Shown piece by piece: positions 2,908-38,363 of a DNA stretch of 64,000 nt. The DNA is from Escherichia coli (GTDB taxonomy: Bacteria; Pseudomonadota; Gammaproteobacteria; Enterobacterales; Enterobacteriaceae). The position numbers and the translations under genes were made by a program. How positions within the stretch are numbered: position 1 is the first letter of the stretch; each line of letters opens with the position of its first letter. The stretch lies in assembly GCF_029227855.1 (NCBI RefSeq), contig NZ_CP074356.1, one strand, 5' to 3'. A model generated the notes under the pieces. The model was not told the origin of the DNA. It made no database searches and worked only from the letters and a program-made list of their open reading frames with translations.

Positions 2908-4161
2908 TTAGTGACTTTCAGCCCAGGCTCTTTCTATCTCTTCCGCCAGAATCTTCACCCCCGCCTCAATTTTCTCCGGCTCTGGTACGTAGTTCATGCG
3001 CATACATTGATGCGTATGCGGCCACGGTTTATCCAGCCCTGGGAAGAAGTTGTGCCCCGGCACCATCAGCACGCCGCGTGCTTTCAGGCGCTGGTAGAGT
3101 TGCTCGGTCGTAATGGGCAAATCCTTAAACCATAGCCAGAGGAAAATGGCTCCTTCTGGTTTATGAATTAGGCAGCGATCTTCCGGTAAATAGCGGCGAA
3201 TGATGGCGATAGTTTCCTGAACACGCTGGTAGTAAAACGGTTTGATGACTGTTTCAGACAGGCGCAGCAGATCGTTACGCTTAATCATTTCACACATCAT
3301 CGCCGGACCAATACCGCCAGGTGCCAGGCTGATAATGCCGTTCATATTGGTGATGGCAGTGATGATTTTTTCATTGGCGATGATAATGCCGCAGCGGGAG
3401 CCAGGCAGCCCCAGCTTGGAAAGACTCATGCACAGCACGATATTCGGATTCCATAGCGGGCGCGCTTCACTGAAGATGATACCCGGGAACGGGACGCCAT
3501 AAGCGTTATCAATCACCAGCGGAATGCCGTGTTGATTCGCCAGCGCGTCAAGCTTCAGCAACTCTTCGTCAGTAATCACATTGCCTGTTGGATTCGTCGG
3601 CCGGGAGACGCAAATCATCCCGGTTTCTTCGCCAATATGCAGATGCTCAAAATCGACGTGGTATTTAAACTGGCCTTCCGGCAGCAGTTCAATATTCGGA
3701 CGCGCAGAGACAAACAGATCTTCTTCCAGTCCGGCGTCAGCGTAGCCAATGTATTCCGGTGCCAGCGGGAACAGCACTTTTTTGACCCGACCATCGGCAC
3801 GGCGTCCGGCAAACAGATTAAATAAGTAGAAAAACGCGCTCTGGCTGCCGTTTGTTAGTGCAATATTCTGTGCTTCGATATCCCAACCCAACTTCTCGCG
3901 CAGCATTCCGGCAAGCAGTGTGAGTAGCTCCGTTTTCCCCTGTGGACCGTCGTAATTGCACAGTGCATCAGTCGCTTTGCCACTTTCCAGCATGTCGGTC
4001 AGTAGCGTCTGGAAGTAGTCCTGCATTTCCGGGATCTGCGCCGGATTACCGCCGCCGAGCATAATCGCGCCAGGCGTGCGTAAACCGTCGTTCAGATCTT
4101 CCATCAGCAGCGTAATGCCGGAGTGGCGGGTAAATTTGTCACCAAAAAGGGAGAATGTCAT
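2908..4161 (-). CDS. avtA: Valine-pyruvate aminotransferase (transaminase C)
   Basis: Track ORF 2908-4266; canonical start MTFSLFGDKF at 4161 gives 417 aa; class I aminotransferase. Confidence 0.9.
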   Translation of the reverse strand: MTFSLFGDKFTRHSGITLLMEDLNDGLRTPGAIMLGGGNPAQIPEMQDYFQTLLTDMLESGKATDALCNYDGPQGKTELLTLLAGMLREKLGWDIEAQNIALTNGSQSAFFYLFNLFAGRRADGRVKKVLFPLAPEYIGYADAGLEEDLFVSARPNIELLPEGQFKYHVDFEHLHIGEETGMICVSRPTNPTGNVITDEELLKLDALANQHGIPLVIDNAYGVPFPGIIFSEARPLWNPNIVLCMSLSKLGLPGSRCGIIIANEKIITAITNMNGIISLAPGGIGPAMMCEMIKRNDLLRLSETVIKPFYYQRVQETIAIIRRYLPEDRCLIHKPEGAIFLWLWFKDLPITTEQLYQRLKARGVLMVPGHNFFPGLDKPWPHTHQCMRMNYVPEPEKIEAGVKILAEEIERAWAESH

Positions 4162-4338: not shown

Positions 4339-6369
4339 TCACTGTTGCCCAGCCCAGATGACCAGCACTTTATCGTCGCCATGCTCACGAACAAAGCCGT
4401 AGCCCTGCTTCAGCGAAAGTGTCGTTTGTTTGCCCGCGCCAATTGCGGGATGGCGGGCGCGGAACTGGCTGATTTTCTGCCAGTGCGCGACGTTGGCGGC
4501 AGATTTACCGCTAACATCCTGCCAGTTCATATCCGAACGTGTACCTTGCAGCGGATCAGAACCTGTAGGACCGAACGGACGCGAGGATTCATCGCCATAA
4601 AAGATTTGTACCGCGCCTGGCGCTAATAGTAATAACTCTGCTGCTTTGTCGCCCCCTTCACGGAACAGACGGGTATCATGCGACGAGAGGTAGCTCAACA
4701 CGTTGAAACCCTGCAATTTCTCCGCCATTTGCTGCCAGGTCGTATCCATCTGCGCCAGACAATCGACTGCTTTCGCCGCCTGCTCCTGATAATCGAAATT
4801 GATCATCGCATCGAAGCCGTGGCGATAGTAGTCACTTTGCATCACGCCGTGGCCCCAGGCTTCACCGGTCATCCAGAAAGGTTTGTCATCTAATGCTTTG
4901 TCGGGGTTAGCTTTTTTCCATTCGCGAAGCGCGGCGCTGGCTTCGGTTTTCAGTTGCTGCCAGGCGGGCAACTCAACATGTTTGGCGGTATCGACCCGAA
5001 AACCATCAATCCCATAGTCGCGGACCCACTGACTTAACCAGTGGGTTAAGTAATCGCGAGGTGTAAAGCCTTCGATGACTTTAGCGTGAGTATCCGTTTT
5101 GTTTTTATAGAACACCGGCAGACCAGAAGCGGTAGTTGATTCGGTTTTGATATCCGGCAAAAAGGCCAGCGACATAGTGAGATCGTCGAATCCAGGATTG
5201 TCGTAATCGCCGATATCCGTTCTGATCCAGTTTTTTCCCCACCATTTATCCCAGCCTGTTTTGTCGCTGAAATTAATGTAATCGTTAAAGCTATGCCAGG
5301 TTTGCCCGGCGGCAGGTTTCCAGTCGCTCCAGCGTTCACCCAGCGTTTTTTTCACCTCGTCACCAGAAAGATATAACGCGCCAAACTGATACTCCTGCAT
5401 ATCCGCCAGCGTGGCATAGCCGGTGTGGTTCATCACGACATCAAAGAGAATACGAATACCGCGCTGATGTGCGCTATCAACCAGCGTCCGTAGATCGGCT
5501 TCGTTGCCCATATTGGCATCAAGATTCGTCCAGTCCTGTGTGTAATAACCGTGGTAGGCATAATGCGGGAAATCGCCTTTTGTACCGCCGCCGACCCAGC
5601 CGTGAATTTGCTCAAATGGGGCGCTTATCCATAAAGCATTAACGCCCAACTGCTGGAGGTAATCCAGTTTGTTGGTCAGGCCGCGTAAATCGCCGCCGTG
5701 AAAAGTGCCAATTTCCGCCATACCGTCTTTATGACGTCCGTAACTCTGGTCATTACTGGGATCGCCGTTTTCGAAACGATCTGTCAGCACAAAGTAAACC
5801 GTGGCGTTATGCCAGTCGAAAGGGGCAGGGGCGTCAGTTTCTGCCCGTTCCAGCAGGAGTAAACCGTTGCTGGTAGCAGCGGGTTGTAACGTTATTTGAC
5901 CGTTCTTCACTATCGCAATTTGCTGGCTGTAATAATCCCGTACGGCGGCTCCTTCCGGGAAAGTGGCGCTGACATCCAGCGTGAGCGGTAATCCATCCCA
6001 TTTCGGGCATTCACGGACCAGGTTTGCTACCGGTTCGGCGGCGTTCTGGATGGAAATCATCAATGTTGGCGTACCGGAGCGGGTGTCTATTTGCAGCGTA
6101 TATTTGCCGTCTCTGAACAATCGCCATTGAGGCGGCGTGTTGCTACAAGGTTGCAGGGAAAGCATCTGATTGAGTTTTATCGCATCTGCAGGCTGCCAGC
6201 ACTGTTGGTCAAAATTTAGCGTGAGTGGACGCGTACCTTTGGGCAACTGCGCGTGGCTGACAAATGTTCCCGTTCCCTGTTCGCTAAAGGCAGGGAACCC
6301 CGGAGAAGTCCAGCTGGCGGCAACGGCGAAGCCAGGAAGGAGTGTCAGAAAACAGGCGGCGAGTTTCAT
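4339..6369 (-). CDS. malS: Periplasmic alpha-amylase
   Basis: 676-aa ORF with signal peptide; GH13 catalytic motifs (GFRVDTAKH); recognised as MalS. Confidence 0.92.
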   Translation of the reverse strand: MKLAACFLTLLPGFAVAASWTSPGFPAFSEQGTGTFVSHAQLPKGTRPLTLNFDQQCWQPADAIKLNQMLSLQPCSNTPPQWRLFRDGKYTLQIDTRSGTPTLMISIQNAAEPVANLVRECPKWDGLPLTLDVSATFPEGAAVRDYYSQQIAIVKNGQITLQPAATSNGLLLLERAETDAPAPFDWHNATVYFVLTDRFENGDPSNDQSYGRHKDGMAEIGTFHGGDLRGLTNKLDYLQQLGVNALWISAPFEQIHGWVGGGTKGDFPHYAYHGYYTQDWTNLDANMGNEADLRTLVDSAHQRGIRILFDVVMNHTGYATLADMQEYQFGALYLSGDEVKKTLGERWSDWKPAAGQTWHSFNDYINFSDKTGWDKWWGKNWIRTDIGDYDNPGFDDLTMSLAFLPDIKTESTTASGLPVFYKNKTDTHAKVIEGFTPRDYLTHWLSQWVRDYGIDGFRVDTAKHVELPAWQQLKTEASAALREWKKANPDKALDDKPFWMTGEAWGHGVMQSDYYRHGFDAMINFDYQEQAAKAVDCLAQMDTTWQQMAEKLQGFNVLSYLSSHDTRLFREGGDKAAELLLLAPGAVQIFYGDESSRPFGPTGSDPLQGTRSDMNWQDVSGKSAANVAHWQKISQFRARHPAIGAGKQTTLSLKQGYGFVREHGDDKVLVIWAGQQ

Positions 6370-6688
6370 GGTGGATGAGTCCTTATTGCTGCGATTTCAG
6401 ACAGTTTGCCAGCGATAAGCCAGACAAAACTCATCCCTGAGCGGTAAGTCCACAGGATGAGAAGCAAGGGTGAGCGATCTCGCGCAAAAAACGGCTGAAT
6501 TTTGCGATAAACCCCACATTTTCTGCGATTTAGCGCCAATCTGAATCGTTAACACGTGACATAGTTTCAGATTTGGACTATTCCTTGGGGTGCTCTTGAC
6601 AGCTATTTTTGATATGATTTGAGATTCAACTCTCAAATTTGTGAAAAATATAAGGTGTTGGAATGATTAAATCCGACCAGGAGACCTG

Positions 6689-7513
6689 ATGATTTTGACT
6701 CCCATACGACGATATGGGGCGATGATTCTTATGTTACTCACTCTGGTGTTTTCGAGTGAGGTGTTAGCGAAGACGCACACAACAACAGCGAGTCAAAAGT
6801 CCCACTTAACTAAAGCTAGTAATAAACAGGTAAGCAGTAAACAAGAGTATTCTCGCAATAGTGCAAAGAGTAGTTCACTTCCTGATTTGCGAAAATACCC
6901 TTCCGGAACACCAAGGAAAAAGGCGTTTCTCCGGACCGTAATGCCTTACATTACCAGCCAAAATGCAGCCATTACTGCAGAACGTAACTGGCTGATTTCA
7001 AAACAGTATCAGGGCCAATGGTCACCTGCTGAGCGTGCGCGTCTGAAAGACATCGCCAAACGCTACAAGGTGAAGTGGTCTGGTAATACGCGAAAAATCC
7101 CGTGGAATACCTTGCTTGAACGCGTAGACATTATCCCTACCAGTATGGTGGCGACGATGGCTGCAGCAGAAAGCGGTTGGGGAACGTCGAAGCTGGCGCG
7201 CAACAACAACAATCTTTTCGGCATGAAATGCATGAAAGGACGTTGTACCAATGCGCCGGGTAAAGTGAAAGGGTACTCACAGTTTAGTTCTGTCAAAGAA
7301 TCGGTGAGCGCCTATGTCACTAACCTCAATACGCATCCGGCTTACTCTTCGTTCCGTAAATCGCGTGCGCAGCTGCGTAAAGCGGATCAGGAAGTGACTG
7401 CCACAGCGATGATTCACAAGCTGAAGGGCTACTCGACCAAAGGGAAGAGTTATAATAACTACCTGTTCGCAATGTACCAGGATAACCAACGGTTAATCGC
7501 GGCGCATATGTAA
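6689..7513 (+). CDS. bax: Bax protein (putative glucosaminidase, FlgJ-like domain)
   Basis: 274-aa ORF with N-terminal signal sequence; recognised as E. coli Bax. Confidence 0.85.
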   Translation: MILTPIRRYGAMILMLLTLVFSSEVLAKTHTTTASQKSHLTKASNKQVSSKQEYSRNSAKSSSLPDLRKYPSGTPRKKAFLRTVMPYITSQNAAITAERNWLISKQYQGQWSPAERARLKDIAKRYKVKWSGNTRKIPWNTLLERVDIIPTSMVATMAAAESGWGTSKLARNNNNLFGMKCMKGRCTNAPGKVKGYSQFSSVKESVSAYVTNLNTHPAYSSFRKSRAQLRKADQEVTATAMIHKLKGYSTKGKSYNNYLFAMYQDNQRLIAAHM

Positions 7514-29436: not shown

Positions 29437-30141
29437 GTGTTAATGATCATAAAAAAAAGCGGTGGTCGCTGGCAGCTAAGCCTGCTGGCGAGCGTGGTAA
29501 TCAGTGCCTTTTTTCTCAACACAGCTTACGCCTGGCAACAAGAATATATCGTTGATACGCAATCCGGACATTCCACAGAGCGTTACACCTGGGATAGTGA
29601 TCATCAACCTGATTACAACGATATTTTGTCGCAACGTATTCAAAGTAGCCAAAGGGCGCTGGGACTGGAAGTCAATCTGGCGGAAGAAACTCCTGTGGAT
29701 GTGACCAGCAGTATGAGTATGGGCTGGAATTTTCCTTTATATGAACAGGTTACAACCGGCCCGGTCGCGGCATTACATTACTATGGCACAACCACCTCGA
29801 TGTATAACGAGTTTGGCGACAGTACTACCACGCTGACCGATCCGTTATGGCATGCCAGCGTGAGTAGCTTAGGCTGGCGTGTTGACTCCCGGCTTGGCGA
29901 TCTCCGACCCTGGGCGCAAATCAGCTATAACCAGCAATTTGGCGAGAATATCTGGAAGGCGCAATCAGGCTTAAGCCGGATGACGGCGACAAACCAGAAC
30001 GGCAACTGGCTGGATGTCACCGTAGGCGCTGATATGTTGCTCAATCAAAATATTGCTGCCTATGCCGCGCTATCTCAGGCAGAAAATACCACTAACAATA
30101 GCGACTATCTGTATACGATGGGGGTTAGTGCCAGATTTTAA
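29437..30141 (+). CDS. yhjY: Putative secreted beta-barrel / lipase-like protein
   Basis: 234-aa ORF with signal peptide; C-terminal aromatic residue. Confidence 0.75.
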   Translation: MLMIIKKSGGRWQLSLLASVVISAFFLNTAYAWQQEYIVDTQSGHSTERYTWDSDHQPDYNDILSQRIQSSQRALGLEVNLAEETPVDVTSSMSMGWNFPLYEQVTTGPVAALHYYGTTTSMYNEFGDSTTTLTDPLWHASVSSLGWRVDSRLGDLRPWAQISYNQQFGENIWKAQSGLSRMTATNQNGNWLDVTVGADMLLNQNIAAYAALSQAENTTNNSDYLYTMGVSARF

Positions 30142-30254
30142 CGCAACAGTCACAATTGAAACCATTGAATAACAATGCTTGTGGTGATAGTGGGTGCTAA
30201 CTTACAAAATGATAAATTTGGTGAATAATTGTCGCGTCATTCATTCCTGAACTA

Positions 30255-30285
30255 AGGCATTTCATTCCGTTCTGATGGCATTTCA
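30255..30285 (+). promoter_or_regulatory. Direct repeats GGCATTTCAT-N11-GGCATTTCAT upstream of yhjX (YpdB-type response regulator site)
   Basis: Exact 10-bp direct repeat at 30255-30264 and 30276-30285, 85 nt upstream of the yhjX start. Confidence 0.6.
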
Positions 30286-30369
30286 TGCCGTTTTTCCCCA
30301 GGCATAAAATGCACTTCGTTATGGTTGTCGGCAGAGATTTTTCCTTTTTATTACTGCAGGAATACTGCC

Positions 30370-31578
30370 ATGACACCTTCAAATTATCAGCGTACCCGCT
30401 GGCTGACACTCATCGGTACTATCATTACCCAGTTTGCACTGGGGTCGGTTTATACCTGGAGCCTGTTTAATGGCGCGCTTTCTGCCAAGCTGGATGCGCC
30501 GGTAAGCCAGGTCGCTTTCTCTTTCGGCTTGTTAAGTCTGGGGCTGGCAATTTCGTCTTCTGTTGCGGGCAAATTGCAGGAACGTTTTGGCGTTAAACGC
30601 GTCACCATGGCTTCCGGCATTTTGCTGGGATTAGGCTTCTTCCTGACCGCGCATTCCAACAACCTGATGATGCTGTGGTTAAGCGCCGGTGTGCTGGTCG
30701 GTCTGGCGGATGGCGCGGGTTACCTGCTGACGCTCTCTAACTGCGTGAAGTGGTTCCCGGAGCGTAAAGGTCTGATATCCGCGTTCGCTATCGGTTCTTA
30801 TGGTCTGGGTAGCCTGGGTTTCAAATTTATCGACACGCAGCTGCTGGAAACGGTGGGTCTGGAAAAAACCTTTGTGATTTGGGGAGCGATTGCGCTGGTG
30901 ATGATTGTTTTCGGCGCAACGTTAATGAAAGACGCACCAAAACAGGAAGTGAAAACCAGCAATGGTGTGGTGGAGAAAGATTACACGCTGGCAGAGTCGA
31001 TGCGTAAACCGCAGTACTGGATGTTAGCGGTAATGTTCCTGACTGCCTGCATGAGCGGCCTGTACGTGATTGGGGTAGCGAAAGATATCGCCCAAAGTCT
31101 GGCACACCTTGATGTGGTTTCCGCAGCTAATGCAGTCACTGTTATTTCCATCGCCAACCTTTCAGGTCGTCTGGTTCTGGGGATACTGTCTGACAAAATC
31201 GCCCGTATCCGTGTTATCACCATTGGTCAGGTGATTTCGCTAGTGGGTATGGCGGCCCTGCTGTTTGCACCACTGAATGCAGTGACGTTCTTTGCAGCGA
31301 TTGCCTGCGTGGCATTTAACTTTGGCGGCACTATTACCGTCTTTCCGTCACTGGTCAGTGAGTTCTTCGGCCTCAATAACCTGGCGAAAAACTACGGTGT
31401 GATTTACCTCGGTTTCGGTATCGGTAGCATTTTTGGTTCGATTATCGCCTCACTGTTTGGCGGCTTCTATGTGACCTTCTACGTGATTTTCGCCCTGCTG
31501 ATTCTGTCATTGGCGCTTTCTACGACAATTCGTCAGCCAGAGCAGAAAATGTTGCGTGAGGCGCATGGCTCCCTTTAA
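30370..31578 (+). CDS. yhjX: MFS transporter (oxalate/formate antiporter family)
   Basis: 402 aa from MTPSNYQRTRWLTLIGTII; 12 predicted TM segments. Confidence 0.88.
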   Translation: MTPSNYQRTRWLTLIGTIITQFALGSVYTWSLFNGALSAKLDAPVSQVAFSFGLLSLGLAISSSVAGKLQERFGVKRVTMASGILLGLGFFLTAHSNNLMMLWLSAGVLVGLADGAGYLLTLSNCVKWFPERKGLISAFAIGSYGLGSLGFKFIDTQLLETVGLEKTFVIWGAIALVMIVFGATLMKDAPKQEVKTSNGVVEKDYTLAESMRKPQYWMLAVMFLTACMSGLYVIGVAKDIAQSLAHLDVVSAANAVTVISIANLSGRLVLGILSDKIARIRVITIGQVISLVGMAALLFAPLNAVTFFAAIACVAFNFGGTITVFPSLVSEFFGLNNLAKNYGVIYLGFGIGSIFGSIIASLFGGFYVTFYVIFALLILSLALSTTIRQPEQKMLREAHGSL

Positions 31579-37460: not shown

Positions 37461-38363
37461 ATGTCACAGGTTACTGAAAATAAAGTGATTAGCGCACCGG
37501 TGCCGATGACCCCGTTACAGGAGTTCTGGCACTATTTTAAACGCAACAAAGGCGCGGTCGTCGGGCTGGTTTACGTCGTCATCGTGCTGTTCATCGCGAT
37601 CTTTGCCAACTGGATTGCACCCTATAACCCGGCGGAACAGTTCCGCGATGCACTGCTCGCCCCGCCAGCCTGGCAGGAAGGCGGCAGCATGGCGCACTTG
37701 CTGGGCACCGATGACGTAGGCCGTGATGTGCTGTCGCGCCTGATGTACGGTGCGCGCCTGTCGCTGCTGGTTGGCTGTCTGGTAGTTGTGTTATCGCTGA
37801 TTATGGGCGTTATTCTCGGCCTGATCGCCGGTTACTTTGGCGGCCTGGTCGATAACATCATTATGCGCGTGGTCGATATCATGCTGGCGCTGCCAAGTCT
37901 GCTGCTGGCGCTGGTGCTGGTGGCAATTTTCGGCCCGTCGATTGGTAACGCCGCGCTGGCACTGACCTTCGTTGCCTTGCCGCACTATGTGCGCTTAACC
38001 CGCGCCGCCGTGCTGGTGGAAGTTAACCGCGATTACGTCACCGCGTCTCGCGTGGCGGGTGCCGGGGCGATGCGTCAGATGTTTATTAACATCTTCCCGA
38101 ACTGCCTTGCGCCGCTGATTGTTCAGGCGTCGCTCGGTTTCTCTAACGCCATTCTCGATATGGCTGCTCTTGGTTTCCTCGGCATGGGGGCACAGCCGCC
38201 AACGCCTGAGTGGGGCACCATGCTCTCCGACGTGTTGCAGTTCGCGCAAAGCGCCTGGTGGGTCGTGACCTTCCCGGGTCTGGCGATCCTGCTGACGGTG
38301 CTGGCATTTAACCTGATGGGTGACGGTCTGCGTGACGCGCTCGATCCCAAACTGAAGCAGTAA
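37461..38363 (+). CDS. dppC: Dipeptide ABC transporter permease
   Basis: 300-aa membrane ORF. Confidence 0.95.

Follow-up and report, generated by a model that had tools for sequence, protein, structure and literature searches.

The perfect direct repeat in the intergenic region upstream of yhjX is, with high confidence, the operator through which the response regulator YpdB (PyrR) activates yhjX in response to pyruvate, and nothing contradicts this assignment. The yhjX operator is already known, down to its binding constants, and is not a discovery of this work. Its value here is that of a positive control, in which a reader working from the sequence only recovered an experimentally defined operator.

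Two mismatch-free copies of GGCATTTCAT were located by motif search on the plus strand of the window (the whole 64,000-nucleotide stretch of Escherichia coli DNA that was analysed), at 30256-30265 and 30277-30286. They are separated by the 11-nt spacer TCCGTTCTGAT at 30266-30276, giving a period of 21 bp, and 83 nt lie between the end of the downstream copy (site B) and the yhjX ATG at 30370. The same motif and 11-bp spacer are reportedly given in the Fried 2013 abstract. A preliminary description of this DNA had reported an exact 10-bp repeat with an 11-bp spacer about 85 bp before the yhjX start; the repeat was recovered with zero mismatches and the distance agrees, while the coordinates it gave, 30255-30285, lie one base too far to the left, the true span being 30256-30286. 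The perfection that it ascribed to the repeat is real in the present strain but does not hold in all species, and among complete E. coli genomes only some two thirds have a perfect pair. Likewise, its 10-bp motif exists as exact copies, but the unit that is conserved exceeds 10 nt and is a 13-nt box. Features of the region are collected in Table 1.

Table 1 Features of the yhjY-yhjX region in window coordinates, with the number of invariant alignment columns in the non-motif ortholog set (see text)
Feature	Coordinates	Strand	Invariant columns	Basis
yhjY, upstream neighbour, autotransporter beta-barrel domain protein	29443-30141	+		RefSeq, Pfam Autotransporter; bounds the intergenic region
Distal intergenic region	30142-30234		20/93 (0.22)	Non-motif ortholog set
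Stretch identical to the PyhjX SPR fragment	30233-30290	+		PMC4847170 Table 1 and methods against the window sequence
Box 0, degenerate third copy CGTCATTCATTCC	30235-30247	+	7/13	Sequence; shares 9 of 13 bases with box A and precedes it by exactly 21 bp
Gap between box 0 and box A	30248-30255		0/8	Non-motif ortholog set
Site A, promoter-distal, high-affinity YpdB site; box A GGCATTTCATTCC, 10-mer 30256-30265	30256-30268	+	12/13	PMC4847170; column invariance
11-nt spacer TCCGTTCTGAT	30266-30276	+		First 3 nt (TCC) belong to box A, other 8 nt variable
Spacer remainder	30269-30276		3/8	Non-motif ortholog set
Site B, promoter-proximal, low-affinity, cooperatively occupied YpdB site; box B GGCATTTCATGCC, 10-mer 30277-30286	30277-30289	+	11/13	PMC4847170; column invariance
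Inverted near-copy GGCATAAAATGC, reverse complement of GCATTTTATGCC	30301-30312	-		Sequence; 11/12 identical to the box B core
Putative -10 hexamer TATGGT in the conserved block CTTCGnTAT(G/T)GT	30320-30325	+		T1, A2 and T6 kept in all orthologs
Shine-Dalgarno AGGA, 8 nt before the yhjX ATG	30358-30361	+		Sequence; kept in Escherichia and Citrobacter orthologs
yhjX, 402-aa MFS transporter, regulated gene	30370-31578	+		ORF MTPSNYQRTRW..., RefSeq 'L-lactate MFS transporter', Pfam MFS_1

The RefSeq gene order is yhjY, a feature-free intergenic region, yhjX and eptB, in agreement with the unannotated intergenic setting noted in the preliminary description. Of 5,426 complete E. coli genomes, 5,422 have a match to the 228-bp yhjY-yhjX intergenic region, and strain 120899 matches it at 100% identity. 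The regulator genes ypdAB are absent from the 64-kb window, and yhjX and ypdAB lie in different parts of the K-12 chromosome, going by RefSeq coordinates and the K-12 map. A ypdB gene, whose product carries Pfam Response_reg and LytTR domains, is present in 5,422 of the 5,426 complete genomes, and this near-universality makes its presence in the present strain very likely. The RefSeq record of MG1655 (b2380-b2381; positions 4672-7001 of locus L055) names ypdA and ypdB pyrS and pyrR, names also used in PMC7730263, whereas other E. coli records keep ypdB; a search of literature or annotation under a single name, ypdB or pyrR, will miss half of them.

The assignment to YpdB is carried by published binding experiments on this very sequence. 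Positions 30233-30290 of the window are base-for-base identical to the 58-nt core of the PyhjX oligonucleotide used for surface plasmon resonance (SPR; compared with Table 1 of PMC4847170), a fragment sized to span all nucleotides protected in DNase I footprinting. In that study, YpdB and its phosphomimetic variant YpdB-D53E were monomers in solution, and SPR with YpdB-D53E resolved two binding events, one with a KD of ~1.2 nM and slow on and off rates and the other with a KD of ~21 nM and fast on and off rates. Mutation of site A abolished all YpdB binding, mutation of site B left one binding event, and the control DNA PyjiY, a BtsR target, was not bound by YpdB (PMC4847170). The same authors proposed sequential cooperative binding followed by fast clearance (the 'AB-BA' model) as the basis of pulsed expression, and reported that flanking nucleotides affect expression in vivo. 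EMSA, footprinting and in vivo mutagenesis at yhjX (Fried 2013) are cited here as related in later papers from the same laboratory. A reporter carrying the E. coli yhjX promoter also responds in other YpdAB-bearing enterobacteria (PMC5552118). LytTR operators have been described as two direct or inverted repeats of 9-11 nt placed 11-13 nt apart (PMC4847170), and the present site, with 10-nt repeats, an 11-nt spacer and a period of 21, fits that definition. The preliminary description was therefore well founded both in recognizing a LytTR-type YpdB architecture at yhjX, given the identity of 30233-30290 to the published YpdB-bound fragment, and in calling it known biology, as operator, regulator, stimulus and kinetic model have all been published for the exact sequence.

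Considered by statistics alone, the bare GGCATTTCAT repeat is unremarkable, because perfect direct repeats of at least 10 nt at offsets of 10-40 bp occur five times in the window against ~1.8 expected from first-order Markov simulations. With up to three mismatches allowed, the window contains a single pair of GGCATTTCAT copies and none of 100 dinucleotide-preserving shuffles contains one, a comparison that presupposes the motif. The weight of the repeat rests instead on its intergenic position, its conservation across species and the published experiments. The four further perfect 10-nt direct repeats in the window, at 37882, 38987, 44415 and 8909, have offsets of 21-34 bp, and the one at 37882 shares the offset of 21 with the yhjX pair. 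The sole other exact copy of the 12-nt core GCATTTCATGCC in the window, on the minus strand at 7220-7231, was rejected as an operator and attributed to chance: it lies antisense within a 274-aa open reading frame (6689-7513) and has no partner box 21 bp to either side.

Conservation was followed in two sets of loci. A scan of ~100,000 species genomes for GGCATTTCAT-N(10-12)-GGCATTTCAT returned 44 loci, 20 of which belong to the Enterobacteriaceae (Escherichia, Citrobacter, Intestinirhabdus and Raoultella). None of the matches of this species-genome scan is apparently from E. coli sensu stricto, the one titled E. coli (L008) carrying a divergent, 97%-identical YhjX. All 20 enterobacterial pairs have a spacer of exactly 11 bp, occur once per genome and share the orientation of a yhjX ortholog with 88-99% protein identity, lying 81-84 bp upstream of yhjX in 19 species and 69 bp upstream in Raoultella. 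Invariance of the 20 motif bases is circular in loci selected by the motif, and a second, non-motif set was therefore fetched by protein. It comprises E. fergusonii, C. freundii, two orthologs at 89% identity and a divergent E. coli allele; it is small because nearly all of the 120 matches listed in the YhjX protein search were from E. coli.

In the non-motif set, both boxes are kept nearly intact while the intervening spacer diverges (Table 1), the pattern that binding of a protein to two boxes should leave, and no indel alters the 21-bp register in any ortholog. The conserved unit extends beyond the 10-mer to a 13-nt box, GGCATTTCAT[T/G]CC, with 8 nt between boxes: the trailing NCC is invariant, unlike the leading G. 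At position 5 of site B, T gives way to G or C in E. fergusonii, C. freundii and the two further orthologs, a tolerance that fits the published lower affinity of site B.

Outside the enterobacteria, most matches to the exact pair were rejected as operators: Lachnospiraceae matches behave like coding sequence, several others are tandem arrays, and Bacteroidales matches belong to a dispersed repeat with inverted AAATGCCATTTCG. None has a yhjX homologue. In the Bacteroidales metagenome-assembled genomes (L014, L015 and L024), the 10-mer pair has a 12-bp spacer and sits inside a dispersed repeat of ~90 bp with inverted AAATGCCATTTCG arms, present in at least two copies in one genome. The only plausible LytTR operator among the non-enterobacterial matches is the Limosilactobacillus group, discussed below.

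Within E. coli, the 31-mer spanning the pair was found with at least 28 exact bases in 5,386 of 5,426 complete genomes (99%), at a median of one place per genome, a maximum of two and never on a plasmid, even though the surrounding 228 bp are only 90-95% identical in 1,729 genomes. The first base of site A (window 30256) is G in 3,605 complete genomes, which carry a perfect 60-mer. A further 1,627, or ~30% of complete E. coli (among ~5,400 matching genomes; variant alleles L048 and L047), have T there and hence TGCATTTCAT in place of GGCATTTCAT at site A. The present strain has G. Genomes with T share a divergent intergenic haplotype that is ~92% identical over the 228 bp. Two other taxa have T here as well, so the first base of site A is probably not critical, and this variability of the first G means that perfection of the repeat is no functional requirement. 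The G-to-T change could tune the threshold of the pyruvate response, or the shape of the pulse, between lineages.

Some strains lack an intact operator. In E. coli DX6 (NZ_CP126345.1; positions 3045-3830 of locus L046), an IS1 element flanked by the 9-bp target duplication TGGCATTTC lies within site B, at the equivalent of window 30276-30284, and places ~0.77 kb between site A on one side and site B with the promoter on the other. Because IS1 parts the two in this manner, DX6 is probably unable to induce yhjX via YpdB.

If TATGGT serves as the -10 hexamer of yhjX, transcription would start near 30332 and box B would end at about -43, beside a missing -35 element and close to the expected place of sigma region 4 or the alpha subunit. 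Such a placement would fit recruitment of RNA polymerase by the YpdB molecule bound at site B, as the authors of PMC4847170 propose. A consensus sigma-70 scan found no promoter downstream of the boxes and left TATGGT uncalled, as is to be expected of an activator-dependent promoter without a -35. Our literature search found no published mapped yhjX transcription start, and found nothing dissecting the promoter in the literature on PyhjX, pyruvate and biosensors. Two other candidates were rejected. The only match of the sigma-70 scan, CTTACA-17-AATAAT at 30201-30229, lies upstream of the operator and is unconserved in other genera; TAAAAT at 30304-30309 is TAAAGT in K-12 and has no counterpart in Intestinirhabdus, Raoultella or E. 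fergusonii, so that conservation favours TATGGT as the likelier -10.

An inverted near-copy of the box B core lies between box B and the putative -10 (Table 1) and overlaps the -10-like TAAAAT. It is probably not a functional site and is best regarded as incidental, because few orthologs beyond Escherichia and Citrobacter keep it well and the published footprint-sized fragment does not include it. Position 30309 is A in the present strain and G in K-12 (CATAAAAT against CATAAAGT), and A improves both the -10 match and the inverted match. In the present strain, the near-copy could conceivably act as a self-limiting site.

Further upstream, ~55-70 bp before site A, a conserved block TGATAGTGGGTGCTAAC occupies 30186-30202, and its GATAGT is invariant in all orthologs, including distant ones. 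The block has no match to any motif that we can name and may be a candidate site of a second regulator. A structured RNA element in the yhjX leader is unsupported, with no Rfam match at E<=1 on either strand of 29800-30700.

The working of the operator has been published for this very sequence. Extracellular pyruvate is sensed by the membrane kinase YpdA, resulting in phosphorylation of YpdB. An activated YpdB monomer first occupies site A, the upstream copy (KD ~1 nM, slow kinetics in both directions), and its presence there lets a second YpdB load onto site B, the downstream copy (KD ~21 nM, fast kinetics in both directions). The YpdB pair then brings in RNA polymerase for yhjX transcription, and fast release, from site B and then from site A, is proposed to make expression pulsed. 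On our reading, the functional unit would be the 13-nt box repeated every 21 bp; as 21 bp corresponds to two helical turns, both monomers would sit on the same face of the DNA, and the polymerase would act at the putative -10 lacking a -35.

Several other explanations of the repeat were weighed against this one. Short-range perfect repeats of 10 nt or more are not rare in the window, and one of them has the same offset, so the pair might be a product of chance or a neutral, functionless 21-bp tandem duplication. However, different genera keep the boxes and not the sequence between them, and in 20 species the pair has a constant place and direction with respect to yhjX, which excludes such an origin; the persistence of the 31-mer amid divergent flanks in E. 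coli and the experimentally measured binding of YpdB (PMC4847170) also speak against it, and we give it practically no credence. It is very improbable, too, that the repeats serve mainly another regulator, for example the paralogous LytTR regulator BtsR (YehT). There is a functional link between BtsS/BtsR and YpdA/YpdB, and in some conditions active BtsS/BtsR reduces yhjX expression (PMC5552118), yet the BtsR motif ACCGCTTA-N13-ACCACTCA, taken from the published PyjiY oligonucleotide, is unrelated in sequence to the yhjX repeats. An ACC[G/A]CT[C/T]A repeat with a 13-bp spacer, the BtsR motif reportedly described in Kraxenberger 2012, has no match on either strand of 30101-30400; the failure of YpdB to bind PyjiY DNA shows that the two operators can be told apart, and direct YpdB binding to the exact yhjX sequence has been published (PMC4847170).

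A different question is whether the operator, accepted as that of YpdB, contains more than two boxes. In a three-box array, a third YpdB would contact box 0, or box 0 would shape a DNA bend that aids loading of site A; this is compatible with the YpdB operator assignment, and we entertain it tentatively. Box 0 shares the exact 21-bp register and 9 of 13 bases with box A. It is conserved across genera: of the 18 species loci that the exact pair retrieved, 17 keep its GTCATTCATTCC and the remaining one has GACATTCATTCC, a conservation not imposed by the search, and TCATTC is invariant in the non-motif set. Box 0 also lies inside the footprint-sized fragment, and flanking nucleotides influence expression in vivo (PMC4847170). 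In the BtsR control oligonucleotide, too, the two motifs are preceded at 20 bp by a degenerate third copy, GCCGCTCA. Box 0 is not named as a site in the accessible literature. On the other hand, mutation of site A wholly abolishes binding with box 0 and site B intact, which means that box 0 cannot bind alone, and interaction-map analysis resolved two binding events, not three (PMC4847170). Box 0 is also less conserved than boxes A and B, and the Limosilactobacillus loci have no third upstream copy. An accessory half-site role is possible. The broader proposition that the operator exceeds its two 10-mers and varies naturally within E. coli, with box 0 acting in loading or bending, the G-to-T change at site A in tuning and the inverted copy in self-limitation, strikes us as unlikely.

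For an operator as well characterized as this one, the additions made here are small: the 13-nt box, the natural G/T polymorphism of site A, the in-phase box 0 and the allele disrupted by IS1. Three points may be of modest use to those who employ PyhjX as a pyruvate reporter and to students of DNA recognition by LytTR regulators: the 13-nt box with its 21-bp period, the natural substitutions tolerated at the first base of site A and at the fifth of site B, and the want of an intact operator in some strains, such as DX6 with IS1 in site B.

Among known systems, the yhjX operator of K-12 (Fried, Behr and Jung 2013, J Bacteriol 195:807; Behr, Heermann and Jung 2016, PMC4847170) is the same element, with the same 10-mers, spacer and downstream gene. 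There is no difference within the site, and the nearby change at 30309, A here and G in K-12, lies downstream of it. The operators of AgrA, ComE, PlnC, VirR and FsrA likewise consist of two repeats of 9-11 nt, 11-13 nt apart, upstream of activator-dependent promoters, where flanking sequence aids binding (PMC4847170), but they share no consensus with the yhjX site, and their systems respond to quorum-sensing peptides and not to a metabolite. Closer in function is the BtsR (YehT) operator of btsT (yjiY), known to us as cited in PMC4847170 (Kraxenberger et al. 2012), which also belongs to a paralogous pyruvate-sensing LytS/LytTR system with direct repeats at a 21-bp period and a single transporter target. 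It differs in its unrelated 8-nt half-site and 13-nt spacer, and it is not bound by YpdB.

The nearest parallel outside the enterobacteria is the LytT operator of pftAB (ysbAB, lrgAB-like) in B. subtilis, which has two 13-nt boxes, each essential, placed 8 nt apart at the same 21-bp period (PMC5626966). LytT too belongs to a pyruvate-responsive LytS/LytTR system whose regulon is a single operon encoding a pyruvate transporter, and Charbonnier et al. 2017 call the YpdB site similar to that of LytT (PMC5626966). The B. subtilis target is a transporter of the LrgAB/PftAB type and adjoins its regulator genes, whereas in E. coli the target is the MFS protein YhjX and does not. In four Limosilactobacillus species (L. 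vaginalis, positions 4427-4457 of locus L032, and loci L007, L017 and L027), lytS-lytT and lrgA-lrgB-ldh flank an identical GGCATTTCAT-N11-GGCATTTCAT, whose repeats are conserved and whose spacer has diverged. The lytS and lytT products there have 5TM-5TMR_LYT/GAF/His_kinase and Response_reg/LytTR domains, respectively, and LytT is ~36% identical to YpdB. The pair is probably the LytT operator of a pyruvate-transporter operon, and these loci are a further, very clean instance of the resemblance already published for B. subtilis LytT. The 13-nt box and 21-bp period found at yhjX thus match the independently defined LytT site of B. subtilis, and the 10-nt core recurs unchanged at the lytST-lrgAB loci of Limosilactobacillus.
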